DNA of 64,000 nt from a virus (Duplodnaviria; Heunggongvirae; Uroviricota; Caudoviricetes), in IMG/VR virus record IMGVR_UViG_3300007351_000001; one strand, written 5' to 3'. Under the pieces are notes generated by a model that saw only the letters and a program-made list of their open reading frames with translations, searched no databases and was not told the DNA's origin. The translations under genes and the position numbers were made by a program. Shown in pieces: positions 17,627 through 39,332 of this stretch (within the stretch, counting starts at the first letter, position 1; every line of letters begins with the position of its first letter).

Positions 17627-17646
17627 CTTGTTCGTGGAAGGGTTGT

Positions 17647-17721
17647 GGTGGCTGTAGCTCAGTTGGCTAGAGCGCGTGACTGTGGCTCACGAGGTCGAGG
17701 GTTCGATTCCCTCCAGTCACC
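17647..17721 (+). tRNA. tRNA-His (anticodon GTG) with G-1
   Basis: Extra 5' G pairing with C73; anticodon stem CGTGA/TCACG with loop CTGTGGC; T-arm GAGGG-TTCGATT-CCCTC. Confidence 0.8.
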
Positions 17722-17739
17722 CTTCTTTCGGAGGTGGGG

Positions 17740-18480
17740 ATGGTGGACGTGGCGGTGATCATGCCCGTGTACAACGAGCGGGCATGTCTGCATCAGGTGA
17801 TCGAGGAGTGGGTCGCGCTCTTGAAGCCGCTCGACGGCGTGCTCGTGCTCTGTGATGACGGCTCGACCGACGGCAGCGACGACGTCTGCCGAGAGTGGCA
17901 ACGGCTCGAACCGCAGCACGTCGTCGCCCGACGGCACGAGAACGTCGGCCACGGGCCGACCGTGTACTGGGGCTACCGGTACGCGCTCGACGAGCTGCGC
18001 GCGTGCTACGTCGCCCAGGCGGACTCTGACGGGCAGTTCCCCCCAGCCGGCCTCGACGAGCTGCTGAAGCACCGCCGTGGCGGTGTTGTGCTTGGCATCC
18101 GTCGGGATCGCCAGGACCCGCTGATCCGCCGGCTGCTCTCGAAGGCGATGCGCCGGATGAACTATGCCCTCTTCGGGGTGTGGGTCGAGGACGCCAACTG
18201 CCCGGTGCGCGTCATCTGGTCGGGCTACCTCGAACGCGTACTGCCGATGATCCCCCCGATGACGTTCGCACCGAACGTCTTGCTCTCCCTGCGCGCCGCG
18301 AAGGACGGCCGGCTCTTCACCAAGCCGATCCCCCACCGGCCGCGTGCCACCGGTACTGTGACCATCAACCGCCGCCTCCTCACGGTCTGCCTCCGCAACC
18401 TGGTCGAACTGCTTGCCTTCCGCCGTAACGGATTCCGTCGTGCGTTGGACGATCGTACGCGCACTCAGCGTCGGCATTGA
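17740..18480 (+). CDS. glycosyltransferase family 2, polyprenol-phosphate sugar transferase (DPM-synthase/GtrB-like)
   Basis: VIMPVYNERACL...LCDDGSTDGSDD motif; GGAGGTGGGG RBS before ATG 17740. Confidence 0.75.
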   Translation: MVDVAVIMPVYNERACLHQVIEEWVALLKPLDGVLVLCDDGSTDGSDDVCREWQRLEPQHVVARRHENVGHGPTVYWGYRYALDELRACYVAQADSDGQFPPAGLDELLKHRRGGVVLGIRRDRQDPLIRRLLSKAMRRMNYALFGVWVEDANCPVRVIWSGYLERVLPMIPPMTFAPNVLLSLRAAKDGRLFTKPIPHRPRATGTVTINRRLLTVCLRNLVELLAFRRNGFRRALDDRTRTQRRH

Positions 18481-18712
18481 CAGCACCGAGTTCCGGCTGC
18501 CGTATGCGGTCGATCGCCTCGCCTCGATTCGTGATCAGTTCCGTCGCGCACAGGGCATTCGCGATGGGCAGCACGTGCCGGCGTGGCAAGCCTACCCGTG
18601 GCTCGTCAAGCAGCGGCTGATCCGGCAGACGACTACCCCGATCATGAAGGTGCAGCTCGCCGTGCTCTGCACACGCCCGGTGGTCAAGCTGACCCCGGTA
18701 AAGCCATCATGA
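18440..18712 (+). CDS. possible small protein overlapping the GT2 3' end (~90 aa)
   Basis: ORF track 18413..18712; start uncertain (GTG). Confidence 0.35.
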   Translation: MRWTIVRALSVGIDSTEFRLPYAVDRLASIRDQFRRAQGIRDGQHVPAWQAYPWLVKQRLIRQTTTPIMKVQLAVLCTRPVVKLTPVKPS

Positions 18713-18998
18713 AGCGGTGCACCGCCATCGTCCGGTGGTAGCCGCAGATCGAGCACTCGCGCAGGTCGGTGTTCGGCATCACGTGCGGCTCGACCACCAC
18801 CCACTGCTCGGGGTGCTTCACCACGTTCATGAGACGCCGGGTCACTTCCAACCTGAAATGCCCACCGAACCCCGAGGCTTTGAGCCAGCGCACGCCGTCG
18901 CGCTGCACGAGCATCAGCTCTTCGCGGAGCCCATCGACCACTGGGCGATAGAGCAGGGCGCCACGCTCTAGCGCAGCGACCAACTCCGCAGCGGTCAT
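18684..18998 (-). CDS. hypothetical protein (104 aa)
   Basis: Protein-like; CSICGYH motif. Confidence 0.55.
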   Translation of the reverse strand: MTAAELVAALERGALLYRPVVDGLREELMLVQRDGVRWLKASGFGGHFRLEVTRRLMNVVKHPEQWVVVEPHVMPNTDLRECSICGYHRTMAVHRFMMALPGSA

Positions 18999-19423
18999 CC
19001 GGTAGGTGGGACGACGTGAAAGCCGGCGTCGCGCACGGCTCGATCGAAACGCTGGTAATCGAGCGGGTGCGCATCGACGCCGCGCCGCGGGTCCGGATCC
19101 ATCGGTGGGTCGAACGTCAGAGCTGCTCCGAACGCATGCGTGAACACCGCAATCATCGGCAGCGAGATCTGCTGCAGCGGCGTCCAGCGGAGCACATCGT
19201 GCGCGAGCGTCACCACGTGCCGGCGCTGTTCAGGCCAGCGATCGAAGGCGACGTTGTCCCGCACGGCAGCAAGGTGCGCCTTGGTGCGCTCGTAGTGGCC
19301 CGTCACGGCGTCCGGGACGATCGTCCGGTAGCCGCTCCACTCGTAGAGTTCGCCGAGCGCACGAGACAGTTCGCCCTGCGCGTCTTCCTCGGAATCGCTG
19401 AAGCTGTCGGCCATCATCCACAC
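18995..19423 (-). CDS. hypothetical protein (142 aa)
   Basis: ORF track, protein-like; 4-nt overlap downstream. Confidence 0.6.
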   Translation of the reverse strand: MWMMADSFSDSEEDAQGELSRALGELYEWSGYRTIVPDAVTGHYERTKAHLAAVRDNVAFDRWPEQRRHVVTLAHDVLRWTPLQQISLPMIAVFTHAFGAALTFDPPMDPDPRRGVDAHPLDYQRFDRAVRDAGFHVVPPTG

Positions 19424-19450
19424 GCCCTTTCCCCACCAGCAGCATCGGTC

Positions 19451-20089
19451 TCAGTTCCCGTCCCAGTCCAAGATCCCGAGCCGCTTGTCAACCATCCACT
19501 GCGCTTCCGCGGAGAGCTGGGGGTAGTTCGAGGGGCGCTGCAACGCAGCCAGCGCGGACGGGGACGGCGTGTGGTGCGTGACGAACTCCGGCAGGTGCTC
19601 CCCGACGATGAAGAGCGACGCCTGCGGGCTCACTTCCTCTGGCCGGCGGATGAACGAGGCCTGGCAGAGGTCGCCGTTCCAGTACGACCGAGCCTGCGCG
19701 ATGTTCTCGTGGAGCCGCTGCTCGCCGGTGTTCAAGTCGCGCTGGTTCCAGATGATCACGCGATCGAGATGCGGCTTGTGGAGCACGACGAAGTCGACGA
19801 GCTGGGGAATCGACCGCGGCTCGACCCACACCCGGTCATCATCGTGCCAGCGCCCGACGACGGTGGCGTAGTCCGCGCCGGCATCGAACGCGGCCTGCAC
19901 CTCCTCGTCGGTCGTATGCAGGCCCTTGGCGAGGATGCGCTTCCACGTCGACGCCTTCGCCTTCCGGACGAGGTCGAGGCTGCCGCCCCACCGAGCATCG
20001 GTGTGTACCGAGATGAGGTCCCCGTGCTGGTGCGCAAGGGCGAAGCGCTCCTCCCAGCTCTCAGGCGCCCGGAAGCCGAACGGGCTCAT
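19451..20089 (-). CDS. TIM-barrel protein resembling indole-3-glycerol-phosphate synthase (TrpC-like), ~212 aa
   Basis: VAEVKTMSPFG...ISVHTDARWGGSLDLVRKAKA...LAKGLHTTDEEVQAAFDAGADYATVV resembles IGPS motifs (IAEIKxxSPS / ISVLTD..F.GS / RKDFI.D..Q..EA...GAD). Confidence 0.5.
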   Translation of the reverse strand: MSPFGFRAPESWEERFALAHQHGDLISVHTDARWGGSLDLVRKAKASTWKRILAKGLHTTDEEVQAAFDAGADYATVVGRWHDDDRVWVEPRSIPQLVDFVVLHKPHLDRVIIWNQRDLNTGEQRLHENIAQARSYWNGDLCQASFIRRPEEVSPQASLFIVGEHLPEFVTHHTPSPSALAALQRPSNYPQLSAEAQWMVDKRLGILDWDGN

Positions 20090-20130
20090 CGTCTTGACCT
20101 CAGCCACGAAGAGCGGCCGTCCCAGCCTGC

Positions 20131-20613
20131 TCACGCGGCCTCCAGTGGCGGCGGTCCGCCGTACGAGTAGGCGCCCACATGGCCGTCGGGGAGTGGCCAC
20201 TGGCGTCCGGACTGTTCATGGCTGATGCTGACGATGGTCGCGCGGATGTTGAAGAAGCGGGCGTCCAGATGCGCGCAGTTGAAAAACGTGCGCATTTCGT
20301 TGATCCACGGTTCGAGCTTCGCATGCGTGACCCGTCCCACGATCACACAGAAGGGCTGGAATGGCTTCAGCTCGTCGTACACACAGAACATCGACGGGAC
20401 GGTGATCCGTCGCTTCAGACGGCCCTGACGCGGCCCAGGCGGGCCGAACACGTCGTGTCGTGGACAGACCGCAGCGACGCGATTCCCCATCCGCAGCAAA
20501 ACCCGCCGCACCGCCCCGTGGTCTCGGCCGTGGCGGTCGACCCGCGGCAGTCGCTCCTGGTCCGTGCGGTACTTCACGTAGAGCGTGCACGAGCGGTTCT
20601 CGAACGACGACAT
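20131..20613 (-). CDS. hypothetical protein (~160 aa)
   Basis: Trimmed to ATG 20611-20613 (MSSFENRSCTLYVKY...); upstream ORF portion is junk. Confidence 0.55.
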   Translation of the reverse strand: MSSFENRSCTLYVKYRTDQERLPRVDRHGRDHGAVRRVLLRMGNRVAAVCPRHDVFGPPGPRQGRLKRRITVPSMFCVYDELKPFQPFCVIVGRVTHAKLEPWINEMRTFFNCAHLDARFFNIRATIVSISHEQSGRQWPLPDGHVGAYSYGGPPPLEAA

Positions 20614-20642
20614 GGGAGGCCAGCGGACCGTCCAGGACCGTC

Positions 20643-21044
20643 TCACCAGACCCAGCCACCAGGCCAGGCGTAGCCGTAGTCGTAGACCCCAGGCTGCGGG
20701 CGGACGATGACGATGCTCGACCCGGTCGCCTCGCACGTCGACTCGCCCGGTGCGCACTGCACCGTTTCCAGCTGGCGGGTACGCCGGCCGTCAGTCACTG
20801 CCGCGGCACCTGGCGGCACCTGCACCACGCTGATCGGCGGCTGTGTCTGCAGGACCGGGAAGTACCCACAGCCGGTCGCAAACACGCCGAGGTAGATGAT
20901 GCCAGCCACGACGGCGGCAATGCCGAACGGGTGATCTGTGAGCACGCTCCGCGCGACAGCGGCCCACGACGGCTCCTGGGGTAACGGTTCGTCTCGTCTG
21001 ACGATGACCATCCGACCATCGACCCTCTTCCACTCGTGGCACAT
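20643..21044 (-). CDS. membrane protein (133 aa, one TM helix)
   Basis: FGIAAVVAGIIYLGVFATG hydrophobic segment. Confidence 0.5.
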   Translation of the reverse strand: MCHEWKRVDGRMVIVRRDEPLPQEPSWAAVARSVLTDHPFGIAAVVAGIIYLGVFATGCGYFPVLQTQPPISVVQVPPGAAAVTDGRRTRQLETVQCAPGESTCEATGSSIVIVRPQPGVYDYGYAWPGGWVW

Positions 21045-21071
21045 GCTGAGCCCTCCCGGCCGAGGACTCTA

Positions 21072-21356
21072 TTACAGGTCGGAAGATCCCTGCAACAGCA
21101 AAAAGACGCCCTCTGCGGCCAACGCGTTGGCCGTGACGTCCATCGTTGCGTCTTCGTACCGATCATCCAGCCACTGCTGACCGCAGCCGTAGCAGATGCC
21201 GGCGGGGTAGGTGATCACCTGACTGACATCACCCCAGTAGATCTTGGACTGCGTCTCGTGGAACTCGGTGCTATCGCTCTCACCACAGTTCGGACAGCGG
21301 GCTCGCCGTGCCGCCGCTTGCTCCGCGGTTTCCAGATCCCCCGTGTCGAGCGACAT
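21072..21356 (-). CDS. zinc-ribbon protein (94 aa; CPNCG...CYGCG)
   Basis: ATG at 21354-21356. Preceded on the same strand by a 14-codon uORF (MFGIGMLCGLFLAW) whose stop overlaps this start (TGATG). Confidence 0.6.
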   Translation of the reverse strand: MSLDTGDLETAEQAAARRARCPNCGESDSTEFHETQSKIYWGDVSQVITYPAGICYGCGQQWLDDRYEDATMDVTANALAAEGVFLLLQGSSDL

Positions 21357-21429
21357 CACCAGGCGAGGAAGAGACCGCAGAGCATGCCGATCCCGAACAT
21401 CACCCAGGACCGGTGCCGGACGTGCCACG

Positions 21430-21785
21430 GCTGCTGCGCTGGAGGTGGTGCCACCCGTAGCCGACGCGGGAAGTGCACGACCTGGTGCATGCCTCGATCT
21501 AGCGCACTTCTCGGCCGTCCGTCCAATGGCCCATTGAAGGAGCCATTGAAGGGGGCACTGTATGCGCCCTTCAATGGCCCAATACAGACAAGGCAGCTCC
21601 CTCTGAGTATTTAGGCAAACGCCTCGCTGCGCTCCCGCCTTCGGCTCCGCTCCGCTCGCAGGGGTTCTCCTGATGGCGCCAGGGGCGCGCAGCGTAAGCG
21701 TAGCGCCCCCGCGCCCTACATATGCTTTTTTTGTTCTCTCTGAGTATTTTTAGGCAAACAGGAGGGGGTGTGGGGGAACCGCCGG
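21430..21785. repeat. complex intergenic region with iteron-like 11-mers, a duplicated AT-rich 20-mer and GC palindromes
   Basis: CCATTGAAGG(G) at 21531 and 21543, its reverse complement at 21567, and partial CCAATGG. CTCTGAGTATTT(TT)AGGCAAAC at 21601-21620 and 21736-21760. T7 run at 21726-21732. Confidence 0.6.
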
Positions 21786-22463
21786 TCAGCCCCGTTTCGC
21801 GTCGAGTTTCGCCGTCAGCTCGACCTCGGCGGCGAGGCCGGCCGGGTCCGCGAACAGATCGCGGAAGGCGGTCTTCGGCAGCGGGATCTCCTGCAGCATC
21901 TCGATGTACGGATCGACCGAAAGCCACCGGTCGCTGTCGATGATGGTGATCTGCAGCGCAGAGCGGAAGCTGAGCTTGGTCCGGGTGATCGCCTCCCACA
22001 CCAGCCGGCGCCGACGCCATTCCGCCGCGGTGACGTCCTTGGGCCGGTCTGTGTGGTTCCAGTAGTCGAAGCGGGTCAGCTCCGGCATCTCGTCCATGAA
22101 CGCGAACACGTCCTCGAACAGCCAGTCGCTGATCGGCCGGAGGTAGTGTGTGCGGCGATGCTCGTGCACGATGACGTGGCAGTCGAAGTGGAAGGGGTTA
22201 CGGCGCGGGGACTTCAGCTGGGCCAAGTACTGCTGCCGCACGAAGTCGTGGACGTGCTCTAGCCGCGCCATTTCTTCCCCGACCGTCTTCATACGCTCGA
22301 CGATCTCGGGGAGGTTTGGTTTCAGCTCCCGTGTGAGGTCTTGGTAGAGCTTGCGGAGGATCGCCTGAGCGTACCGCTCGCCCTCGCGCTGGATCGTGCG
22401 CACGACTGACCAGAGTTGCCGGCTGTTGGTGAGACGGTAGGCTGGTGTGATCACCACGCTCAT
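21786..22463 (-). CDS. hypothetical protein (225 aa)
   Basis: Long protein-like ORF; ATG at 22461-22463. Confidence 0.7.
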   Translation of the reverse strand: MSVVITPAYRLTNSRQLWSVVRTIQREGERYAQAILRKLYQDLTRELKPNLPEIVERMKTVGEEMARLEHVHDFVRQQYLAQLKSPRRNPFHFDCHVIVHEHRRTHYLRPISDWLFEDVFAFMDEMPELTRFDYWNHTDRPKDVTAAEWRRRRLVWEAITRTKLSFRSALQITIIDSDRWLSVDPYIEMLQEIPLPKTAFRDLFADPAGLAAEVELTAKLDAKRG

Positions 22464-22482
22464 CGTCGTCTCCAGGAAGAAG

Positions 22483-22557
22483 AGCCCGCGGAGGGAGTCG
22501 AACCCCCGGCCCGCTGCTTACGAAGCAGCCGCTCTGGCCAGACTGAGCTACACGGGC
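22483..22557 (-). tRNA. tRNA-Thr (anticodon CGT)
   Basis: Acceptor GCCCGTG/CGCGGGC, D-arm TAGCTCAGTCTGGCCAGAGC, anticodon stem GCTGC/GCAGC loop TTCGTAA, T-loop TTCGACT. Confidence 0.8.
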
Positions 22558-22570
22558 GTGTGAAAGGGAG

Positions 22571-22642
22571 TGGGCTCGGCGAGAGTCGAACTCGCACCAC
22601 TCGGCTTAAAAGGCCGATGCTCACCAACTGAGCTACGAGCCC
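22571..22642 (-). tRNA. tRNA-Lys (anticodon TTT)
   Basis: Perfect acceptor GGGCTCG/CGAGCCC, anticodon stem TCGGC/GCCGA loop CTTTTAA, T-arm GCGAG-TTCGACT-CTCGC. Confidence 0.8.
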
Positions 22643-22867
22643 AGGGAAGGGCTCGCGTCATTTCAGCCGAGTCATCATGAGGGAAGGAAGGGGTACGCCT
22701 CCAAACCGCTGCCACCAGCCCGAGAACGGGAGCCTGACGCCCCGTCGCGTCGCATTACTGCGCGCATCAGCTATCTGGTGGATTTGGCGCATCGTTCACC
22801 GTTCGGCGTTCAATCGTGCGATCAAGCAACCCTGCGCTTTGCGGCTATGAGCTTTTCGATCCGTTGG

Positions 22868-22940
22868 GATCAAGTACGGGAGTTGAACCCGTTACCTTCT
22901 GGTTTCAGGCCAGACGCTCTACCAAATGAGCTAACTTGGG
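22868..22940 (-). tRNA. atypical tRNA-like gene (loop CCUGAAA: C33, anticodon UGA or shifted GAA; two mismatches at top of acceptor stem)
   Basis: Canonical 73-nt layout with D-arm GCTCATTTGGTAGAGC and T-arm ACGGG-TTCAACT-CCCGT. Pairs 1-72 and 2-71 are C-T and C-A. Class I body despite a Ser-type anticodon. Confidence 0.45.
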
Positions 22941-22990
22941 TATGCCACGCTTCTCTCGCTTCGCTGCCGAAGGCGTACCGCGGTCTCCTC

Positions 22991-23539
22991 TCAGTCGTCG
23001 ATTGTGATCTTGGTCGTCGCGTTCAGGAGCGAGAGCTTGCCGTCGAGATCACCGAGCGTCTTCTCGATGGCCTCGATCTCGGCCGTCAGCTCCGACTCCT
23101 TGACGTTGATGATCACAGTCTCTTCCGGTTTACCAGCGCTCGTGTCGCCGGCCTGTACGACCTGCCGCCCGCGCGCCTGGTTGCGCGTGTGCTGGATTGT
23201 CTGGAAGAGCTGCGCCAGGTACTGCTTCTGGCCCTCGGAGATCTCCCGGCGCCAGGTGAGCCACCCCGCCAGCGTGCGCGTCCGCTCGCCGAGTGTCAGC
23301 GTGACCTCTTGGTTCTTCGCCTGGACCGCGGTGCGGATCCGGATCACGCGCTCTTCGAGGTCGTTGATCGCCTGCCGCTCGCGCCGGATGAACTCGGCCG
23401 ACCCGCCGTCGATGTCCTCCATCGGATCGCGCAACTGCCCGCCGCGTGCCAGGTACGGGATGATCGACTCGCGCTTCTTCCCGAGCCGGGCTTCGATCGT
23501 CTTGATCTCGGCCAGGGCCTCCGTGATCGTCGTCTCCAT
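22991..23539 (-). CDS. hypothetical coiled-coil protein (182 aa)
   Basis: ATG 23537-23539 with GAGGAGGAAGG RBS; METTITEALAEIKTIEARLGKK... Confidence 0.65.
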   Translation of the reverse strand: METTITEALAEIKTIEARLGKKRESIIPYLARGGQLRDPMEDIDGGSAEFIRRERQAINDLEERVIRIRTAVQAKNQEVTLTLGERTRTLAGWLTWRREISEGQKQYLAQLFQTIQHTRNQARGRQVVQAGDTSAGKPEETVIINVKESELTAEIEAIEKTLGDLDGKLSLLNATTKITIDD

Positions 23540-23553
23540 TTTTGCCTTCCTCC

Positions 23554-23739
23554 TCACAGGTCGAGCTTGCGGGGTGGCCGACTCTCGAACAGCTCCTGGA
23601 GCTTCACCGATTCCACCTCTCCGGAGGTGAAGGCGGCGCACACACGTTCGACCAATGCCCGCCCCGCAAGCCGCGCGGCGACGTCGTCCGTGCCGGGCAC
23701 GCGCAACCGGACGACCAGTTGGTAGTTGTTCCCGTCCAT
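23554..23739 (-). CDS. hypothetical small protein (61 aa)
   Basis: ATG 23737-23739 (MDGNNYQLVVRLRVPG...). Confidence 0.5.
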   Translation of the reverse strand: MDGNNYQLVVRLRVPGTDDVAARLAGRALVERVCAAFTSGEVESVKLQELFESRPPRKLDL

Positions 23740-23910
23740 GAAGCTCCGTGGCGTAGCAGACCTCTTAGAAGTTGTCACGGTCTTTTGCCGGTGCTACGAC
23801 AGGCGTCGAAAGTTTTCTCCCACTCGCGTGGGCGTTTTTGGCTCTGGGGAGCATCTTACTAGGTAGGGGACTTGTGGTGGCTTGCGGCGGGGGAGGGCGG
23901 AAGGTGCAGG

Positions 23911-23940
23911 TTGGCACGCTCTTCGCACCTTTGTACCGGT
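23911..23940 (+). promoter_or_regulatory. sigma54-like conserved promoter motif, copy 5 (TTGGCAC-gctct-TCGCAC-CTTTGTACCGGT)
   Basis: TGGCAC 23912-23917, TCGCA 23923-23927. 25 nt later come GGAGGAAG RBS and the ATG of the MoxR gene at 23966. Confidence 0.6.
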
Positions 23941-23965
23941 AAGCCCTTAGCTGCGGAGGAAGCGT

Positions 23966-25183
23966 ATGCCAGATCAGAGTCTCAGTCTCGTCGAACTGCT
24001 CACCCGTTTCGCGAGGCTGGAGTACAACGTCCTCATGACGGGGCACACCGGCGTCGGCAAGACGACGGTGGGGCTCCACGTGTGCGAGCGCATCTGCTCG
24101 TACCAGGTGAAGTTCTTCAATGCGGCCATCATGGACCCGCAGGTCGAGCTGCTCGGGATCCCGACCCCAGACCTCGACTTCGAGCGCCAGCGCGAGCGGA
24201 TCTTGCGGGTGTTGATCGACTTCGGGTTGAAGGGGACCTTCCGGCCCTTGGAGAGCGAGACGCCGACCGAGACCTACTCGCGCGTCACGCAGCTGGTCGA
24301 CACCGCGTTCGACCGGCCGAAGTCGCTGCAGTTCCTGCGCCCGAAGTTCATCGACGAGTGCGACGTGTTCTTCGTCGACGAAATCAACCGCGCCGAAGTG
24401 CAGACGCTGAACGGCATCATGGAGGCGATCCAGTTTGCCACGGTCATGGGCGATCGGCTGCCGCGCCTCAAGATGACCTGGGCGACGCGCAACCCCGACG
24501 GCGACGACATGGGCTACCACGTCCAGCGCATGGACCCGGCCTTGATCCAGCGGTTCCGGACCTTCGTCGAGGTCGACGCGCAGCCGGCGGTCGACATCCT
24601 CGTTGCGTGCGGGCCGATGCGCGAGGCAGTCGCTCGCAACCTGATCGAGTGGTACACCGCGCTGCAGGAGGGTGTGAAGCTGCACCTGCCGCCACGCCGC
24701 TTGGAGTACATCGGCAAGGCGTTCGAGGATGGGCTGCCGCTGGAGTTCGCCATCCCACCGTTGGTCGACGTCACCAAGCTGCCGCTCAAGAATCTGGAGA
24801 CCATGCTGCGCAGCGCGACCAAGTCGACGCTGGTCAGCAAGGATGACCTCTCGACGCCGGAGAAGCGCGCGGCCTTGATCGGGCGCATGAACGACGGCAC
24901 GGCCAAGGGGCTCAGTGTCACCGTGCAGGTGCAGAAGATCCTCTCGCACCCGACGGTGAAGCTGCACAAGTTGATCGAGTACGTCGAGGTCGTCGAGGCG
25001 ATGCGTTTGGAGACGCGTGTCGGTATGTGGGCCGCGATCGGCACGCGCCTGCTGAATCAGGTACCGGAGCCGGCCAAGTACGACTTCTCGCAGTTCGGTG
25101 CGCAGGAAGAGAGTGCGCGCCGTCTCTTCCGCGTCGCGATCCGCGACGGGTTCTACCAGGACGTGAAGCCGACGGACATCTGA
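23966..25183 (+). CDS. MoxR-like AAA+ ATPase (405 aa)
   Basis: Walker A GHTGVGKTTV, Walker B FFVDEINRA, MoxR-like C-terminal helical region. Confidence 0.85.
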   Translation: MPDQSLSLVELLTRFARLEYNVLMTGHTGVGKTTVGLHVCERICSYQVKFFNAAIMDPQVELLGIPTPDLDFERQRERILRVLIDFGLKGTFRPLESETPTETYSRVTQLVDTAFDRPKSLQFLRPKFIDECDVFFVDEINRAEVQTLNGIMEAIQFATVMGDRLPRLKMTWATRNPDGDDMGYHVQRMDPALIQRFRTFVEVDAQPAVDILVACGPMREAVARNLIEWYTALQEGVKLHLPPRRLEYIGKAFEDGLPLEFAIPPLVDVTKLPLKNLETMLRSATKSTLVSKDDLSTPEKRAALIGRMNDGTAKGLSVTVQVQKILSHPTVKLHKLIEYVEVVEAMRLETRVGMWAAIGTRLLNQVPEPAKYDFSQFGAQEESARRLFRVAIRDGFYQDVKPTDI

Positions 25184-26763
25184 TGACCATCGACTACTCC
25201 AAGATCCACCTGACCGGTGGCAGCCAGCACGAGCTGTGGAAGATCTCCCGGCCGTGTGACTGGCGCTGGCTGCCGCCGGGCTGGGATGACCCGCAGCGGG
25301 TCGCCTGGCGTCAGGAGCGCTTCGAGCAGGCGTTGGAGACGATTGACGCCGCTGCGGAGCACGACCTGTGGATGCAGCTGCGCTTCGCACAGCTCGGGAC
25401 GCCGAAGTTCCAGGCGCTCCCGATGCCGACGACGGCCGTCGGCCTGCGCCCGAACGGGCAGATCGAGTACGTGTTCCACCCGCGCTTCTTCGATCTCTGC
25501 GAGCCGGAGCGCTTGGTGTTCTCGATCGTCCACGAGCGCTTCCACGTCGACCTCGACCACCTGCGTCGCGGCATCGGCAAGCGGCGCAACTTGTGGAACA
25601 TCGTGATCGACATCGTCGACAATGAGTACTGTCACGCACTCGGCTTCCTGCCGCCGGAGATTGGCCGCGACTACTGGTCAATCGAGAAGCTGCTGCCCGG
25701 CTTCCGTGGCCTTGGGGAGGATGTCGGGGCCGTGGCGGACTTCCGCACGGAGTTCGACGCGACGCGCCTCTACGACTTCCTGTTGTCGATCATCGAGAAG
25801 ATCACCCTGCCGCCGTTCGCCGCGTTCGCTATGGACATAGGGATCGGCATGCCGATCCCGGATGAGGATGCCGACGACGACGAGTCGATACCGGGTCCTG
25901 GCGGGTCGGACGAGGGCGAGGGCGAGGAGGACGACGATGAGGGGAACGATCTTGGTCCCCCAATCTCGTGGTCGGACGTCGAGGAGGACCCACAGGATCA
26001 CAACGACTATCAGGACGACGTCGCGGCCAATGGCGGCGCCAACCCGTTTGGGGGTGGTGGTGGGGGTGCCGGCAAGGGCCGGGGAACCTTCGGCGACTCG
26101 ATCATGCCGGCAGTGGCCAAGTCGCGTTCGCACACCTGGCTCGACAACTTGGCTGATCGCGTGCACGGCGAGGTTGTGCGTCGCGTCGAGAAGCAGTGGG
26201 CGATCCCGCCGCGTCGGCTGGTCGGGAGCGGACTCTACCCGCATGTGCTCCTGCCGTCAGTTCGCCGCACCATCGTGCGCACCAAGTCGGTGGTGCTGAT
26301 CGGCGATTGCTCGGGCTCGATGGCCGGCGTGATCCCGAAGATGCTGCGCCTCTTCTCCGAGATGATCGACCACTTCACCAGCGGCCACATTCAGCGCAAC
26401 CCGGTGAAGGTCGATTCGTACGCGTTCGACGATGGGGTGTACCACTGGCCGAAGGAACTGATTCAGCGCGGCCGTGCTCCGCACTCCGGCGGGACCAACT
26501 TCCAGCGCGTGGCAAACTTCGTCGAGGGTCGTGACGTCACGCTGGAGTCCGGCCACGGCGGCGCTGGCATCCGCCTGCGGCAGCACCCCGACCTGGTCAT
26601 CGTGGTCACCGACGGTGAGGATCGCGCGCCGAAGATCAAGTACCCGGACAACTGGGTCTGGCTCTGCGTTGAGGAGCAGGAGTACCCTGCCTACGTCAGG
26701 CGCGACACCAAGGGCATCGGGCAGGTCGTGATGTATGGCGACGTCTACGACGGTTCCTTCTGA
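25180..26763 (+). CDS. DUF2201-type protein: N-terminal putative HExxH metallopeptidase-like domain plus C-terminal VWA domain with MIDAS (527 aa)
   Basis: ATGA overlap with MoxR gene; IVHERFHVDLDHL (HExxH); VVLIGDCSGSMAG (DxSxS MIDAS); long acidic linker DEDADDDES...GEGEEDDDEGND. Confidence 0.75.
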   Translation: MMTIDYSKIHLTGGSQHELWKISRPCDWRWLPPGWDDPQRVAWRQERFEQALETIDAAAEHDLWMQLRFAQLGTPKFQALPMPTTAVGLRPNGQIEYVFHPRFFDLCEPERLVFSIVHERFHVDLDHLRRGIGKRRNLWNIVIDIVDNEYCHALGFLPPEIGRDYWSIEKLLPGFRGLGEDVGAVADFRTEFDATRLYDFLLSIIEKITLPPFAAFAMDIGIGMPIPDEDADDDESIPGPGGSDEGEGEEDDDEGNDLGPPISWSDVEEDPQDHNDYQDDVAANGGANPFGGGGGGAGKGRGTFGDSIMPAVAKSRSHTWLDNLADRVHGEVVRRVEKQWAIPPRRLVGSGLYPHVLLPSVRRTIVRTKSVVLIGDCSGSMAGVIPKMLRLFSEMIDHFTSGHIQRNPVKVDSYAFDDGVYHWPKELIQRGRAPHSGGTNFQRVANFVEGRDVTLESGHGGAGIRLRQHPDLVIVVTDGEDRAPKIKYPDNWVWLCVEEQEYPAYVRRDTKGIGQVVMYGDVYDGSF

Positions 26764-27685
26764 TCGCATCACGCCGGTCAAAGCGACCGGCACTTTCAAG
26801 CCGGCGCTGTGGAACGACCGCGCGTACGTCGCCGAGGAGAAGCTCGACGGTGTTCGCGCGGTCGTGTACGCCACTGCGGCCGGCGCTCGTGTCATGGTTG
26901 GCGAGCGCGACATCACCGCCCAGGTCCCGCACCTGGGCGTGTTGCACGTGCCTGGTCTCGTGCTCGACGGTGAGCTAGTGCAGAACGCGCTGAGAAGCCC
27001 CGAGACCGACCACGTGCCGGGGATCGGCTCGGCCTCAGTCACCGGGATCGTGAACAGTTCGCCCGGTCGCGCCATCGAGACGCAGAAGCGCGACGGGTTC
27101 CTCAAGTTCTATGCCTTCGACTGCCTGCATGTGGGGCGCGTGGGGCGACTCAACATGCGCACGCAGTCGTGGGAGCGCCGTCGCGCTGCCTTGGTCGACG
27201 TTCTGGCTGGGCTACCACGCCCGATTGGCGACAACTACATCGCCGTCCCGGTCGCTGTACCGCCACTCACACGCGAGTTCTACCAACGCGTCGTGCTACT
27301 CGGGGGCGAGGGGGTGGTACTCAAGCACCGCGAACAGTCCTACACCGGCGTTGGGTGGGTGAAAGTGAAGTTCCGGACCACGTTGTCGGTAGTGATTGCC
27401 GGCATCAACCGTGACCGAGAATCGGTCGCCATCGCGGTCTACGAGGACGGCAAGCTCTCCTCGGTTGGTGATTGCGGGATCAAAAACACGCAGCTTCGTG
27501 CGCAGGCACAGTTGAAACCGCACACCTTGGTCGGTCGTGTGCTCGACGTGCAGGCGTATGCGGTCAGTACCCGCGGCAAGCTGCGCAACCCGATCTGGGA
27601 CCGTCTGCGGCCGGATCTCTTTCCGAAGGCGATCACGCGCGACAAGCTGATCGCGGACTTCGAGCAGGCGGTGGAGCACGCGTAG
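26735..27685 (+). CDS. ATP-dependent DNA ligase (316 aa)
   Basis: Motif I EEKLDGVRA (KxDG), LVLDGELV, VVLKHREQSY; overlaps previous gene by ~29 nt. Confidence 0.85.
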   Translation: MATSTTVPSDRITPVKATGTFKPALWNDRAYVAEEKLDGVRAVVYATAAGARVMVGERDITAQVPHLGVLHVPGLVLDGELVQNALRSPETDHVPGIGSASVTGIVNSSPGRAIETQKRDGFLKFYAFDCLHVGRVGRLNMRTQSWERRRAALVDVLAGLPRPIGDNYIAVPVAVPPLTREFYQRVVLLGGEGVVLKHREQSYTGVGWVKVKFRTTLSVVIAGINRDRESVAIAVYEDGKLSSVGDCGIKNTQLRAQAQLKPHTLVGRVLDVQAYAVSTRGKLRNPIWDRLRPDLFPKAITRDKLIADFEQAVEHA

Positions 27686-27907
27686 ATGACAGGGACTGTG
27701 GTAGTGGGGTTGGTGGTGGCGGTGCTGCAGCTCGTGGCGTCGATTATCGCGATGGCTGCGGCCGTACGGACGGTTCGTGCCACGCGAGCAGTGAAGATCG
27801 AAGTCGATCGCTTGATGGTGATGCGCTCGGAGATTGAGCTGGTCCGCCTCGAAATCGAGAGCGAGCTAGCGATGCACTACCAACCGCCGGCCGCGCACCT
27901 GCACTAG
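27686..27907 (+). CDS. small membrane protein (73 aa)
   Basis: ATG immediately after ligase stop; VVVGLVVAVLQLVASIIAMAAAV TM helix. Confidence 0.5.
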   Translation: MTGTVVVGLVVAVLQLVASIIAMAAAVRTVRATRAVKIEVDRLMVMRSEIELVRLEIESELAMHYQPPAAHLH

Positions 27908-27946
27908 GCGCTTCCTCCACTCTCCGCTTGAGTCCACCAAAGGCCT

Positions 27947-28624
27947 GTGCCAGACTTCCCGACCGCAGGCGTAGGGAGGGTGGCGGTGGTGGAGCACGAC
28001 GGTCGGCCACGTGATGGTCTCACGTATCGGTTGCCCATCGAGCAGATCCTGGCAGAGCAGGGTGCGGCGAAGCGCAGCCGCCTCTTCCGCCAGTACACCG
28101 ATGCCACCTACGCGTGGATCGACGAGGACTTGGAGTTCTTGCGAGCGTTCGAGGAACTCCCGCAAGGTCAGGACGTCGGCGTGCTGCGCAACATCGCCAG
28201 CATGCGCGGCGCGGAGAGCCGGCGCGATCTCGAACGCGAGTATGATCGGCTGAAGCTCCCACACCAGTGGACCGTCAACTGCCTGTGCGTCGACGGTCCC
28301 ATGCTGGCGCTCAACGAACGCGCGCTCGAAGCCTACATCGAGGCGAACTGCCCCATCGCCGTCGGACCGTTCCTCGACTACCTCTGGCGCAAGCAGTGGC
28401 GCATGGTCCCGACGCCGGAGTGGGAAGCCGTGGTCTACAACCAGTTGATGATCGGCTCGCGCCGCGTGTTCGTCCAGGACCAGGTCTACTACTTCCTCCT
28501 CCTCCCGGCGCCATACCTGATCGACGTGGGGTTCATCGAGTCTGCGGAGAAGCGTGAGGCGATCGTCTACGGGTGGTCGCCGATTGACTTGCCGCCAGTG
28601 ACCTGGCAGCAAAAGCGCCGGTGA
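27947..28624 (+). CDS. hypothetical protein (~215-225 aa; start uncertain, GTG candidates at ~27986-27989 after GGGAGGG)
   Basis: Protein-like ORF. Confidence 0.6.
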   Translation: MPDFPTAGVGRVAVVEHDGRPRDGLTYRLPIEQILAEQGAAKRSRLFRQYTDATYAWIDEDLEFLRAFEELPQGQDVGVLRNIASMRGAESRRDLEREYDRLKLPHQWTVNCLCVDGPMLALNERALEAYIEANCPIAVGPFLDYLWRKQWRMVPTPEWEAVVYNQLMIGSRRVFVQDQVYYFLLLPAPYLIDVGFIESAEKREAIVYGWSPIDLPPVTWQQKRR

Positions 28625-28628
28625 CGAG

Positions 28629-29006
28629 ATGCTTGACGAGGGGGGTCGTCAGTTCGCGCTGCATCGCGGCTTGCTGCAGTGGATTGAAGTCGTCGAGGAT
28701 CGTGGCGACACCGTCGTGATCAACCATCCCCAGCGTGGGGAGATGGTCACGCCGCGCGAGCTGTACGAGTGGGATGTCGGTTCGCTCGACGAGTACTTGG
28801 ATCGCCAAGTCGTGGTTGAGTCGCCGTTCGACAGCTCCGCGTTCGTCGTCGAGGCGTCCCCCATCGACTTGATCACGGACGGTGACGAGGACGAGCCGAC
28901 TGCGCTGCGCGAAGCGTTGCCAGACGCCGCGTCGTACGAGCACCTCCTCTCGCCAACTGAGCGCCGCTTCATGGCGAAGGGGTGGACGATCATTCCCTTC
29001 AAATGA
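28629..29006 (+). CDS. hypothetical acidic protein (125 aa)
   Basis: ORF track, protein-like. Confidence 0.6.
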   Translation: MLDEGGRQFALHRGLLQWIEVVEDRGDTVVINHPQRGEMVTPRELYEWDVGSLDEYLDRQVVVESPFDSSAFVVEASPIDLITDGDEDEPTALREALPDAASYEHLLSPTERRFMAKGWTIIPFK

Positions 29007-29151
29007 GCTATTGCGAATGATGCTCAATGAGTAGCAAGAACGCTTGCGCAAGATGAGATAATCAGTAGTATTTACAGGCGAGCATCAACCTGATAGTGCT
29101 CGTCGTCCTGTCATCAACTCAAGGGTGCTGACGTGTGTGGGAGAGGGTTGC
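29007..29151 (+). promoter_or_regulatory. AT-rich intergenic region with sigma70-like promoter elements upstream of the sigma-factor gene
   Basis: TTGCGC-N16-TAGTAT near 29040-29068; contains AGTAGTATTTAC related to the GAGTATTTTTA elements at 21.6 kb and 37.47 kb. Confidence 0.4.
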
Positions 29152-29703
29152 ATGGGAGAGTTGGATCGGGACGAGATTGCCGCGCGGTATGAGTACGTCC
29201 ACGAGCAGCCGAACATCGTTCGCTACCTGGTAGCGCAAGCGATCGTTGCGCACCGCCGGAGTACGGTGCGCCTCGACGTCGACGACTACCTGCAAGCGGA
29301 GTTCCTCGCGTTGTGGGCGACGTGCCGTCGCATTGACCCGCGCGTCGAACTCGCGCGCTTCATCGGGTACTTGAAGGCCGCGTCCGCGGTTGCGATTCGT
29401 CAGGCGCAGCGCAAAGGCTTGCGTGAGACGCGCTTGCAGGATCCGTGGATCGAGGCGTTGAGCGACGTGGTGGCGGACGGGCGCCTCACCCCGGAGCAGC
29501 TCACGATCTACCGCGACCTGGTGCGCAAGCTCGGCTCCTTGGTGCGCGTGGAGCGAGACCCGTACCTGGAACAGGTCTATGATGCGCAAGTGGCGCCGCT
29601 CTTTGGGGCCGCAGCCGGTCACCTACCAGGCACGAAGAAGCGGGTGCGACGACACGTGGGCCGGTTGCTGTCCATGGTCACGACGCTCACCGCGCAGCAG
29701 TAA
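29152..29703 (+). CDS. ECF-type sigma-70 family sigma factor (183 aa)
   Basis: Region 2 DVDDYLQAEFLALW...FIGYLKAASAVAIRQAQRKG; region 4-like GTKKRVRRHVGRLL; GGGAGAGGG RBS. Confidence 0.65.
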   Translation: MGELDRDEIAARYEYVHEQPNIVRYLVAQAIVAHRRSTVRLDVDDYLQAEFLALWATCRRIDPRVELARFIGYLKAASAVAIRQAQRKGLRETRLQDPWIEALSDVVADGRLTPEQLTIYRDLVRKLGSLVRVERDPYLEQVYDAQVAPLFGAAAGHLPGTKKRVRRHVGRLLSMVTTLTAQQ

Positions 29704-29712
29704 GGGCGGGGC

Positions 29713-31176
29713 ATGCTCGCGTTCAACTACGGACCGGTCTTCACTACCGCCGTAGGGACCGAACTCGAACTCGGGACGGTGAGCCAGCTGCTCACGCCAG
29801 ACCCCGAGCAGCCGAGCTTGCTCCTGGGCTCGTACCTGCCGACGGGGCTCTTGTCGCACGTGTGCACGCGGCTCGACATGATCGACGTGCCGTACGTGCT
29901 GCACAACACGCCGGCCGAGGGCTCGATCTACGACGTGCCGCCGGACTACCTCGCCGGCATCACCCTGCGCGAGGAGCAGCGGATGCTCATCCGCAAGGGG
30001 CTCTACCACCAGCGCGGGTTGATCGAGAGTCCGACCGGCAGCGGCAAGACCGAGCTGACGTGCGCGATCGCGCAGTGGCTTGACGGGCGCGTGCTCGTCT
30101 TGGTGCCTGGTACCAACTCGCTGCACCAGACCGCGGCCCGCTTCAAGAAGCGGGGCCTCGATGACGTCGGCATGTTCGGTGACGGCAAGCGTGACCTGAA
30201 CCATCGCGTCATCGTCGCGATCGTTGCCTCGGTCTACCAGGCGATCGGTCGGCGCAAGGCGGACGTGCTGCGGATTCTCTCTGAGTTGCAGGCGGTACTG
30301 CTCCTCGAATGCCACCACTTGCAGGCGATGACTTGGCAGACCGTCTGTCAGAACACCGAGGCGCCATACCGCCTCGGGCTTTCGGCGACGCTCTTTGAGA
30401 AGGGCTCACAGCCGACCACGCATGGCGACTACGCGCTGATCGGGCAGACCGGGCCGGTGGTGGCCAAGCTCCCCGACCATCTGCTCATGAACCGCGGCCA
30501 CCTGGCGACGCCGTGGGTGCACACATTGCGGGTCTTCCAGCCCGAGCGCACCGACGAGCAGAAGAAGTGCGACAACTGGATCCAGCAGCAGCGCGAGTGC
30601 ATCGTGCACAACAAGCCGCGCAACACCATGATCGTCCAAGTCGCGGCGCCGCTGGTGCGCGAGGGCTTCAAAATCCTCACGTTGGTGAACGTGCTCAAGC
30701 ACGGTGACACGCTCGGGAAGATGGCCTCTGAGGCCGTGCGGCCGTTGGAGGTCCAGTTCTACCACGGCGGGTCGACGCTCGACGTCTACCGGGATGGGAT
30801 CCGGGTGCGGCGCGAGAAGCTGCCGATCTACAAGCTGGTCGACAAGCTCGAAGCGGAGCCGGAGTTCTTCCTGATCGGCTCACCGGCCGTGAAGGAGGAC
30901 GCGGACTTCCCTGGTGCCAACGTGCTCGTGGCGGCAGGAGCCGGCCGCGGGTACCGCGGCGTGATTCAACGCACCGGCCGCGTGCTGCGTGCGAAGCAAG
31001 GCACCAACATCGGCCACCTGGTCGACTTCAAGGACTACACCGCCTGGATGTTGAAGGCGCAGTCCGACGCGCGCCGCAAGACCTACGAGGCGCGTTACGC
31101 TGGTGCTGAGCGGTTGCGGTTCCTCGATCATCGGACGCCGGCTGACGTCGTGGAGGCGATTCGGCACGCCGCGTGA
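29713..31176 (+). CDS. SF2 DNA helicase (DExH box; UvsW/Res-subunit-like), 487 aa
   Basis: Walker A SPTGSGKTE, motif II LLLECHH, motif III LGLSATLF, motif VI VIQRTGRVLR. Confidence 0.85.
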   Translation: MLAFNYGPVFTTAVGTELELGTVSQLLTPDPEQPSLLLGSYLPTGLLSHVCTRLDMIDVPYVLHNTPAEGSIYDVPPDYLAGITLREEQRMLIRKGLYHQRGLIESPTGSGKTELTCAIAQWLDGRVLVLVPGTNSLHQTAARFKKRGLDDVGMFGDGKRDLNHRVIVAIVASVYQAIGRRKADVLRILSELQAVLLLECHHLQAMTWQTVCQNTEAPYRLGLSATLFEKGSQPTTHGDYALIGQTGPVVAKLPDHLLMNRGHLATPWVHTLRVFQPERTDEQKKCDNWIQQQRECIVHNKPRNTMIVQVAAPLVREGFKILTLVNVLKHGDTLGKMASEAVRPLEVQFYHGGSTLDVYRDGIRVRREKLPIYKLVDKLEAEPEFFLIGSPAVKEDADFPGANVLVAAGAGRGYRGVIQRTGRVLRAKQGTNIGHLVDFKDYTAWMLKAQSDARRKTYEARYAGAERLRFLDHRTPADVVEAIRHAA

Positions 31177-31224
31177 TGACGAGAGGGTTCGGTCGATGAC
31201 TGGGTTGACGTGGTGGAGGATGGG

Positions 31225-32631
31225 ATGGCCGATGCACCGCAGTATCCGTACGGTCCGCAGTTCCAAGACAAAGTCCTAGCGCTGATGATCCGCGAGCCGG
31301 AGTTCTTGCCGGCGCACGCGGGGATCATCCAGCCGAACTACTTCGACAGCGACATTCACTCGTCGATGGCGCGCATTCTCCTCGACTACTACGAGGAGCG
31401 CGGGTACCCGCCGGTCGCCGACACGGTGAATATGCTGATCACCAACTACATCGAGGCGCACAAGGTCGAGAGCAGCCAGGGTCATCTCCTGCGTGATCTA
31501 GTGCCGGCGCTGCAGAAGGTCGACCTCGCCAACCGCGTCGACATCATCGAGGCCGTGAGCAACTTCGGCCGCAGCAAGCAGCTCGAACAGCTCTGCTTCC
31601 AGCTGACGCAGCGCTTGGCGAAGGGAGAGAAGCCGGACGACATCTGGGAACACATCGACCGCTCGCGGACCACCGGCTCGGCCATCGGGGACATCGGCAT
31701 GTACCTCGCCGACGCGTTGCCTGGCGCCCCGGAGTTGGTGCACGCCGACAACCTCTACAGCGACATCGGGAAGATCTCGACCTACATCGGCCGACTGGAC
31801 AAGCAGTTCAACAACGGCATGGGCCGCAAAGAGCTGGGCGTCATCATGGGCTACACTGGCTTCGGCAAGTCGCTGATGCTGGTGAACCTCGGCGCCGCGG
31901 CGCTCTTCCAGAAGCTCGGCGTGGTGCACTTGTCGATCGGCGAGCTGGAAGAGATCGACCTCCTGGCGCGCTACGCCGCCCGCATCGCTGAGACCTCGAT
32001 CAAGGACCTCGCGCGCCTCGAACAGGTGTCGGTGGCGCTCTATCAGCGCCGCATTGCCGAGATCATCCAGCTCTACGGCGGGCGCGGCTACGCCAAGTAC
32101 TTCTCGCCCGGCACGAAGGTGGCGACGCTGCGTTCGTACCTCTCACGGCTGCGGTCGGAGAAGCACTTCGAGCCGCACCTTCTGGTGATCGACAACGCCG
32201 ACGACCTGCGACCGTCCTCGGCCGCGTTTCAGGCCGAGTCGTCCTACGAGCACTTGGGCCAGGTCTTCATCGAGCTGAAGGCGCTCGCGCACGACTTCAA
32301 CGTCGCCATCTGGTGCGACAGTCAGACCAACCGTTCTGGCAACAAAACTGACGTCGCTGACCTCGACGTCATCGCCGACTCGCACAAGAAGGCACGCAAG
32401 GCCGACATCGTCATCTCGGTGAACCAGAGCAAGCGCGAGCGCGAGCTGAGCGTGCTGCGCCTGGCGCTGGTGAAAGCTCGCCGGTACTCGCGCGCCGACT
32501 CGATCATCTGGTGCCGCGTCGACTACGAGCGGATGCTGGTCAAGGAGTGCGAGCGCCCGCCCGATGAGATCCTGAAGGCGCCGGTCGGTGCCCCGATTCC
32601 GCCAGAGTTCCTGCCGAACTTCCACCACTGA
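31225..32631 (+). CDS. DnaB-like replicative helicase (469 aa)
   Basis: Walker A GYTGFGKS, Walker B LLVIDNADDL, H3/H4-like motifs; GGAGGA RBS. Confidence 0.85.
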   Translation: MADAPQYPYGPQFQDKVLALMIREPEFLPAHAGIIQPNYFDSDIHSSMARILLDYYEERGYPPVADTVNMLITNYIEAHKVESSQGHLLRDLVPALQKVDLANRVDIIEAVSNFGRSKQLEQLCFQLTQRLAKGEKPDDIWEHIDRSRTTGSAIGDIGMYLADALPGAPELVHADNLYSDIGKISTYIGRLDKQFNNGMGRKELGVIMGYTGFGKSLMLVNLGAAALFQKLGVVHLSIGELEEIDLLARYAARIAETSIKDLARLEQVSVALYQRRIAEIIQLYGGRGYAKYFSPGTKVATLRSYLSRLRSEKHFEPHLLVIDNADDLRPSSAAFQAESSYEHLGQVFIELKALAHDFNVAIWCDSQTNRSGNKTDVADLDVIADSHKKARKADIVISVNQSKRERELSVLRLALVKARRYSRADSIIWCRVDYERMLVKECERPPDEILKAPVGAPIPPEFLPNFHH

Positions 32632-32671
32632 GTTTCGCGTCATGTTTCATGTTTCACGTGACACGGTACGG
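32632..32671 (+). repeat. short tandem ATGTTTC repeat with perfect palindrome TCACGTGA
   Basis: ATGTTTCATGTTTCACGTGACACG directly upstream of the HNH-like gene. Confidence 0.3.
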
Positions 32672-34017: not shown

Positions 34018-34029
34018 TCGCATGCACGA

Positions 34030-34075: not shown

Positions 34076-34112
34076 TCCTCTTCGAGCGGCATCTATATCG
34101 GGTGAGGGTACG

Positions 34113-39329: not shown

Positions 39330-39332
39330 ACC

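Follow-up and report, generated by a model that had tools for sequence, protein, structure and literature searches.

The window analysed here, a 64,000-nucleotide stretch with a G+C content of 65% from the IMG/VR record IMGVR_UViG_3300007351_000001 (Caudoviricetes), contains two adjoining genes encoding a MoxR-like AAA+ ATPase and a partner protein in which a zincin-like domain is joined to a VWA domain, preceded by a promoter-like element of sigma-54 appearance. Both proteins are encoded on a 241,426-bp contig, and the window is part of the genome of an uncultured jumbo phage; a blastn search of 50,697 phage records found nothing similar to it at the DNA level. Genes to the left of approximately position 23,640 are on the minus strand and those to the right of 23,966 are on the plus strand, where Pfam and PHROG matches identify a module for replication and nucleotide metabolism. 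The ATPase and partner genes are the first of a 20-kb plus-strand run of replication genes, followed in order by those for an ATP-dependent DNA ligase, a superfamily 2 helicase, a DnaB-like helicase, a Toprim primase, PolA fused to a uracil-DNA glycosylase (UDG)-like domain, a gp32-like single-stranded DNA-binding protein, a 5'-3' exonuclease and RecA, with RtcB, flotillin, NAMPT and NUDIX genes farther along the arm. The pair belongs, as a very divergent member, to a phage module that is known and widespread though experimentally uncharacterised, and of the two features the promoter class to which the upstream element very probably belongs is the more unusual.

The ATPase matches Pfam AAA_5 (PF07728) with a score of 26.9 bits (cut-off 22; E 5.4e-6) across the entire profile, positions 1-139; for AAA_3, the model of the MoxR MRP type, the score is 16.9 bits only, short of the cut-off of 27. 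Present in the protein are G26, G29, G31, K32 and T33, D138 and E139, R142 of the DEINRA-type motif, N176, R196, and P243 with R244, and most of the catalytic residues of the Walker A and B motifs, sensor 1, arginine finger and sensor 2 are invariant across the 53 homologues, recovered with a profile search, that were compared. The Walker motifs of a MoxR-class enzyme reported in a preliminary description of this DNA were found where it had placed them, and the protein appears from its sequence to be catalytically competent. The nearest folds to its predicted model are the dynein AAA modules, NorQ, CbbQ and midasin, with the C-terminal 130 aa or so being helical and modelled at low confidence. 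A phmmer search against PDB sequences gave a P-loop match only.

The partner begins with a domain matching DUF2201_N (PF13203; 31.0 bits, cut-off 23.2). In the predicted model, this domain is composed of three strands, a helix bearing the HExxH motif and then a helix with D143 and N147 (predicted local distance difference test, pLDDT, 80-94), which suggests a zincin-like arrangement. Profile comparison gave weak matches to BepA, an M48 peptidase, and to MJ1213, in each case at the HExxH region; beyond the family, the only sequence matches are with HExxH helices, those of M48 and M78 peptidases and of a minigluzincin-like protein. The linker that follows has a net charge of -22, with 18 aspartate or glutamate residues per 40 in its acidic stretch, and a pLDDT below 50 at residues 222-277 and 279-317. 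The C-terminal domain has a VWA fold with a metal ion-dependent adhesion site (MIDAS; DxSxS...T...D), its best VWA matches in Pfam being to VWA_CoxE (E 0.012-0.13) and VWA (E 0.067). The motifs previously picked out by eye in this protein, namely IVHERFHVD with its HExxH, the poly-acidic linker and the DxSGS of the MIDAS, are all in place. Of the three Pfam models put forward for checking at the same time, AAA_5 and DUF2201_N gave direct matches and PF09967, the DUF2201 VWA model, did not; 58 of the 60 aligned homologues of the partner match DUF2201_N and 26 match PF09967, so the partner's link to the latter is a transitive one. The assignment as a MoxR-like AAA_5 ATPase paired with a DUF2201_N zincin/VWA protein, in an operon-like arrangement, therefore holds. 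The PHROG to which the partner belongs, phrog_1314, is labelled 'HNH endonuclease', yet the family is composed of zincin (HExxH) and VWA domains; the label looks like a mis-annotation, and one that will propagate into phage annotations.

The stop codon of the ATPase gene and the start codon of the partner gene share a single nucleotide (...ATC TGATG ACC; TGA at 25181-25183, ATG at 25183-25185). The junction is therefore not the ATGA overlap described earlier, whilst the translational coupling for which that overlap was taken as a sign is still plausible. The ligase gene, next in the same transcription unit, lies directly downstream of the pair, as had been noted, with its open reading frame (ORF) overlapping the 3' end of the partner gene by 29 nt. 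Scans of the ATPase and partner with NCBIfam models gave no informative match, and neither protein matched a PADLOC defence-system model.

An exhaustive phmmer (HMMER) search found 232 homologues of the partner, most of them aligned in two stretches corresponding to the N-terminal and C-terminal domains, and 60 were taken into an alignment. Invariant in all of these are H117, E118, H121, H126, D143 and N147 of the N-terminal domain and D375, S377, S379, G436 and D477 of the C-terminal domain, with T438 being present in 59; the HExxH motif, on whose conservation the preliminary description had made its reading depend, is accordingly fixed along with the DxSxS of the MIDAS. A strongly acidic linker is found in just four of the 60 and is lacking from the protein of the closest relative. 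This relative, P0003, is 36% identical to the partner and is encoded on a 58-kb contig, L003, that has the same gene order as the window: ATPase, partner, ligase, helicase, DnaB, primase, exonuclease and PolA-UDG. Against the 50,697 phage records, tblastn returned no match for the partner and four weak matches only for the ATPase; a word-indexed search of 5.8 billion proteins retrieved each query itself and nothing else; and a scan of IMG/VR proteins found no relatives.

By sequence, the pair represents the same two families as gp24 and gp25 of coliphage N4. These N4 proteins match phrog_1297 and phrog_1314 at E values of around 1e-136, and the same PHROGs are matched by the ATPase (E 8.4e-8) and partner (E 5.4e-15) of the window; alignment with hhalign gave 99.8% (E 1.7e-30) to N4 gp25 over the full length and 95.6% (E 1.3e-8) to N4 gp24. 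A putative AAA ATPase and a vWFA protein respectively, gp24 and gp25 belong to the 14-gene core of N4-like phages (PMC4193335, PMC2784036). They are found in the same order as in the window, gp25 has the same HExxHx4H, DxSGS, GGT and TD motifs, and the genes lie among those for nucleotide metabolism and replication and are expressed as middle-phase transcripts (PMC4193335). However, the identity to the window proteins is only around 15-20%, gp25 is 380 aa long with a short, non-acidic linker, a gap of 167 nt separates the two genes, the gene next to them encodes a dCTP deaminase rather than a ligase, and the middle genes of N4 are read by the phage RNA polymerase II, not from sigma-54-like sites. 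Literature searches yielded no functional data on N4 gp24 and gp25, and nothing on the pair was found in the PA5oct or CRISPRi-ART studies.

The two genes are adjacent in the window and in all eight of the other lineages examined (L003, L004-6, L007, L008, L009, phiRSL1, BCSR5 and N4). The ATPase gene precedes the partner gene in L007, L008 and L009, and the order is reversed in L004-6; in Ralstonia phage phiRSL1 the pair corresponds to ORF091 and ORF092, and Burkholderia phage BCSR5 also has it. The surroundings are far more variable. The pair is followed by the dCTP deaminase gene in N4 and by a DCD/dUTPase gene in L008, and has hypothetical proteins as neighbours in phiRSL1, BCSR5, L007 and L009; among the lineages examined, only the window and L003 have a ligase after it, and no annotated ligase or RtcB was present in the 13-kb stretch around N4 gp24 and gp25 that was read (positions 9000-22000 of the record). 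Only the pair itself is thus conserved across phages, the adjacency of the ligase being limited to this lineage.

The sigma-54-like motif noted previously ahead of the pair is both real and recurrent. The sequence TGGCACGCTCTTCGCA at 23912-23927 agrees with TGGCAC-N5-TTGCW at 10 of the 11 specified bases and has the -24 (GG) and -12 (GC) core. The window holds five copies of the exact core TGGCAC-N5-TCGCA where 0.16 would be expected, and five were not reached in any of 100 shuffles; the motif is hence not a chance match. Scanning with a position weight matrix (PWM) detected exactly six sites, scoring between 42 and 52 bits, with none falling between 12 and 42 bits (Table 1). The consensus of the aligned sites extends over 36 nt, TGGCAC-N5-TCGCA-cCTTTGynCCGGTA, and all six lie directly upstream of, and in the same orientation as, the start of a gene. 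In two of the six, the end of the element and the ATG overlap (4237 and 9071); as a sigma-54-type start would lie approximately 12 nt past the GC, the mRNAs produced there would be near-leaderless. The ATPase gene differs in having a 38-nt spacer between the element and the ATG, which contains the Shine-Dalgarno-like GGAGGAAG.

Table 1. Coordinates of the ATPase-partner pair, the promoter-like elements and associated features
Feature	Position	Strand	Basis
Promoter-like element, 36 nt, AGGT TGGCAC GCTCT TCGCA CCTTTGTACCGGTA AG	23908-23943	+	PWM, core count, position
Other elements	3637-3672, 4221-4256, 9055-9090, 13750-13785	-	PWM
Other element, variant with core at 43460	43456-43491	+	PWM
Contigs with the TCGCA variant (L045-L049, L055, L058, L060, L062, L064)	Samples Ga0187893/Ga0187894		Metagenome scan
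Shine-Dalgarno-like GGAGGAAG, 3 nt ahead of the ATPase ATG	23955-23962	+	Sequence reading
MoxR-like (AAA_5) AAA+ ATPase, 405 aa	23966-25183	+	Pfam, motifs, model
Walker A, GHTGVGKT	24041-24064	+	Motif
Walker B, VFFVDE (VFFVDEINRA to 24394)	24365-24382	+	Motif
Sensor 1, N176 in WATRNP	24479-24496	+	Motif
Arginine finger, R196 in DPALIQRF	24533-24556	+	Motif
Sensor 2, R244 in PPRRLEY	24689-24709	+	Motif
Zincin-linker-VWA partner (DUF2201_N and DUF2201-type VWA), 526 aa	25183-26763	+	Pfam, PHROG, homologues
N-terminal zincin-like domain, residues ~37-220	25291-25842	+	Pfam, model, invariant residues
HExxH-bearing stretch, IVHERFHVDLDH	25525-25560	+	Motif
H117-E118-x-x-H121-x4-H126	25531-25560	+	Motif
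NIVIDIVDN, next helix, with invariant D143 and N147	25597-25623	+	Alignment
Disordered linker, residues 222-317	25846-26133	+	pLDDT, composition
Poly-acidic DEDADDDES...EEDDDEGND, first half of the linker; Gly-rich stretch next	25861-25950	+	Composition
C-terminal VWA domain with complete MIDAS, residues ~340-520	26200-26742	+	Fold, motifs
GDCSGSM	26302-26322	+	Motif
MIDAS D375-x-S377-x-S379	26305-26319	+	Motif
MIDAS T438 in SGGTNF	26485-26502	+	Motif
MIDAS D477 in VVTDGED	26602-26622	+	Motif
ATP-dependent DNA ligase, next gene of the same transcription unit	26735-27685	+	Pfam DNA_ligase_A_M, phrog_114, NCBIfam LigD-like

The element also has relatives beyond the window. On L003, despite divergence of the downstream block, TGGC-N8-TGCA is retained directly upstream of the orthologous ATPase gene (4264-4279) and a second time between the ATPase and partner genes, in a gap of 31 nt (5562-5577); the partner gene may hence have its own promoter there instead of being translationally coupled. 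In a metagenome scan, the extended pattern was detected on 22 contigs, of which 10-11, having the TCGCA variant, came from samples Ga0187893 and Ga0187894. Several of these elements abut the starts (GTG or ATG) of genes in a repeated family, the products of which begin M/V-P-R-H/R-R-D/H-F. The end of one such contig, L048 (14140-14900), has approximately 80% protein identity to positions 21075-22517 of the window, indicating that the contigs from these two samples are relatives of this phage. Scanning IMG/VR with the motif gave 33 single matches, a result compatible with chance.

On the plus strand, no terminator-like site was detected between the start of the ATPase gene and 42.4 kb in a scan of 22400-42399, and the next element is that with its core at 43460; the element ahead of the pair therefore probably drives the entire arm and not the pair specifically. 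The same region contained no sigma-70-like promoter. Two terminator-like hairpins with T-runs are found on the plus strand at 23789-23832, in the divergent intergenic region upstream of the element, although the genes upstream of these hairpins are on the opposite strand.

That the repeated element defines a class of promoter is, in our view, highly probable; that the class is of the sigma-54 type is probable too, but with distinctly more reserve. The competing view, to which we would assign somewhat less than an even chance, is that a sigma factor or RNA polymerase encoded by the phage uses it as a promoter, or that it is a cis element of another type, the likeness to a -24/-12 sequence being accidental. 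Conservation extends 14-16 nt past the -12 position, through CCTTTGynCCGGTA, an uncommon feature in sigma-54 promoters and a typical one in promoters specific to phages; furthermore, no Sigma54_activat or Sigma54 Pfam domain, enhancer-binding protein or GAFTGA motif was found in the 64-kb window, and no activator site shared by the regions upstream of the six elements was found when looked for. However, a chance resemblance has to account for the match at 10 of 11 consensus positions in all six sites, with GG and GC precisely 10 bp apart, and for the retention of TGGC-N8-TGCA ahead of both the ATPase and partner genes of L003, despite the divergence of the downstream block and a partner only 36% identical. 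Nor do the other ORFs of the window encode an RNA polymerase or sigma domain recognised by Pfam. Phages seldom use sigma-54, but Pseudomonas phage YuA offers a precedent, in that its -24/-12 promoters depend on the sigma-54 of the host (PMC5053324, PMC10914365). YuA itself differs in being a 59-kb siphovirus, and the element in the window departs from its promoters in having TCGCA rather than TTGCA, an extra conserved block downstream and a position often abutting the start codon. The sigma-54 promoters of YuA reportedly serve the late region (Ceyssens et al. 2008).

Regarding function, the nature of the domains, the integrity of their catalytic, MIDAS and zinc-site residues, the conserved pairing and the homology with N4 documented above are in keeping with a two-component module of the N4 gp24/gp25 type for ATP-driven protein remodelling and proteolysis, which is the role that we consider likely. 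In such a module, the 405 aa ATPase would assemble into a predicted hexameric ring, on which the 526 aa partner would dock through its C-terminal VWA domain and MIDAS, as shown in NorQ-NorD and proposed for MoxR/VWA couples at large. ATP hydrolysis might then pull upon the long flexible linker, and in doing so position, activate or feed substrate to the N-terminal HExxH zincin domain, a putative active zinc peptidase. The two genes, as the first cistron pair of the rightward arm, would probably be transcribed from the sigma-54-type promoter at 23912-23927. From this promoter and their place at the head of the arm, we infer that they are expressed in the replication, or middle, phase, as are gp24 and gp25 of N4. 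We consider the substrate somewhat more likely to be a replication-phase target, either a host protein or a non-structural protein of the phage, than a virion protein. Such a target is weakly favoured by the gene context of the pair in the window, N4, L003, L008 and Delftia phage RG-2014, in the last of which a protein with vWFA and DUF2201_N domains is encoded beside a dUTPase (PMC5735904).

A number of observations weigh against a remodelling and proteolysis module of this kind. Formation of the complex, ATPase activity and peptidase activity are all properties that we infer. Both fold searches with the model of the partner gave VWA matches only and thereby did not confirm the zincin fold; the third zinc ligand is ambiguous, with both H126 and D143 being candidates; and PF09967 did not match the partner even at E<=10. 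The acidic linker, kept in so few of the homologues (4/60), cannot be central to the mechanism. Furthermore, the position of the pair within a replication arm is weak evidence for the nature of its target, and a role in virion assembly is favoured by Iyer et al. 2021 (PMC7824862).

It is the virion that provides the main alternative, in which the MoxR ring and its zincin-VWA cochaperone would fold, assemble and trim head or tail proteins. Iyer et al. 2021 (Viruses 13:63) described, in the group 2.2 jumbo phages, a MoxR ATPase accompanied by a vWA cochaperone with a metallopeptidase domain fused at its N-terminus, an architecture that matches the pair in the window when compared by description only, and proposed that it takes part in assembling the virion and in proteolytic processing, in analogy to p618 and p892 from ATV, the Acidianus two-tailed virus (PMC7824862). 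The ATV proteins constitute an experimentally supported case in which a virus encodes a MoxR ATPase and a VWA protein that interacts with it: p618 binds virion proteins as well as p892, and has been implicated in the development of the tails (PMC4124505). However, ATV infects archaea, p892 has no reported peptidase domain, and p618 is itself a component of the virion implicated in the extracellular growth of the tails; this comparison, too, is by description only. Also consistent with a structural role are the 'second structural module' near the gp24 and gp25 homologues of N4-like roseophages (PMC4193335) and, in the window, the match of the divergently transcribed neighbour (22991-23641) to a tail-fibre PHROG. 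Nevertheless, in the window, L003, N4, L008 and RG-2014 the pair is found among genes for replication and nucleotide metabolism, outside the structural module, and the proposal for the group 2.2 phages is accordingly not favoured by the gene context here. The N4 genes are middle transcripts (PMC4193335), and the other genes behind the same type of promoter are not recognisably structural, one of them being RecT-like according to an annotated relative. A virion-assembly chaperone consequently seems unlikely to us, though worth serious consideration.

The preliminary description had suggested instead that the pair matures a neighbouring metal-dependent enzyme, whether the ligase, RtcB or the polymerase, which would make it a metal-insertion chaperone comparable to NorQ/NorD, which serves cNOR. 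MoxR/VWA pairs such as NorQD, CbbQO and CoxDE do mature specific metalloenzymes (PMC9976466, PMC13036017), with a finger of the NorD VWA domain entering the NorQ hexamer's pore and NorQ remodelling the linker that leads to the N-terminal domain (PMC13036017; PMC9976466); the ligase gene directly follows, and overlaps, the pair in both the window and L003, and RtcB is encoded in the same arm. Whilst NorQD is found in the operon of its client, though, the phage pair has no conserved client gene: its neighbours are unrelated in N4, L007, L008, L009, phiRSL1 and BCSR5, and a maturase specific for the ligase or RtcB is unlikely since only the pair is conserved as the neighbours vary by lineage. The relationship in sequence to NorQ/NorD, and to CbbQ/CbbO, is no closer than the level of the AAA_5 and VWA superfamilies, the N-terminal domain of the partner is a zincin-like DUF2201_N module rather than the target-binding domain of NorD, which is not a zincin, and the invariant glutamate of its HExxH motif points to hydrolysis, not the delivery of metal. 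We regard this suggestion as very improbable. The other idea in that description, a protease directed against a host factor, may apply. Scarcely better placed is the view that the HExxH domain is not a peptidase at all, being either a nuclease, as the label of phrog_1314 would have it, or a structural metal site, with the pair then acting solely as a remodeller. The peptidase activity of DUF2201_N is indeed putative; however, Pfam classes the family as a putative metallopeptidase, the matches outside the family are to HExxH helices of peptidases and a minigluzincin-like protein only, the predicted topology, in which the HExxH helix comes between three strands and a helix with a further ligand, is that of a zincin, and the beta-beta-alpha motif of HNH enzymes is absent.

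The gp24/gp25-type pair recurs in many large phages, and a member as divergent as this one separates what is constrained from what is dispensable. Constraint is absolute on the HExxHx4H site, the MIDAS and the catalytic residues of the AAA+ domain; the family can do without the acidic linker, an overlap of the two genes and a ligase as neighbour. This pattern narrows the hypotheses regarding the pair and points to informative mutants, which would be made most easily in N4. Combining the two subjects of this analysis, it can be suggested, quite tentatively, that the phage has a sigma-54 regulon read by host RpoN with an activator, comprising near-leaderless mRNAs as well as the replication arm, in which the pair acts as an ATP-fuelled, tethered protease on a host or replication-phase protein rather than as a virion chaperone. 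Taken by itself, the recurrent promoter element suggests a second example, after YuA, of a phage borrowing the enhancer-dependent sigma factor of its host; should this be true, it has to be asked what activator switches on the promoters in the infected cell.

A number of other features of the window were observed. The ORF at 29125-29703 was considered as a sigma factor and found no support from Pfam or PDB. The family A DNA polymerase at 34113-37445 is 1110 aa long and has an N-terminal domain of the uracil-DNA glycosylase superfamily, a fusion also present in the relative L003. Farther along the arm are the RtcB RNA ligase (50492-51925; tRNA repair), a SPFH/flotillin protein (53302-55194), a NAMPT-type nicotinamide phosphoribosyltransferase (55504-56895; NAD salvage) and a NUDIX protein (57170-58102), and other ORFs have Pfam matches to an RF-1/PCRF release-factor-like protein, a Mor-family activator, an HU-like protein and a dCMP deaminase. 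The plus-strand arm also includes matches to YqiJ (NfeD-like) and to the PspA/IM30 family, which with the flotillin make up a set of proteins for membrane remodelling and stress; the classic E. coli partner of a sigma-54 activator is PspA, making its presence in a phage with this promoter motif a curious one. Ten tRNA genes are present in the 64 kb (116-275, 5782-5856, 17554-17722, 22482-22940, 44330-44402 and 62849-62939), of which that at 202-275 has a predicted four-base anticodon (ctgg), and is either a frameshift-suppressor-like tRNA or an artefact of ARAGORN. Behind one of the minus-strand promoter elements, the ORF at 7456-9057 encodes a 534 aa protein that matches phrog_2319, a family of unknown function. 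The closest match to the protein, with 30% identity, comes from the 309-kb acidobacterial phage Tunturi_5, where the gene bears the annotation of a RecT-like annealing protein; this provides a weak hint as to the lineage or host of the phage.

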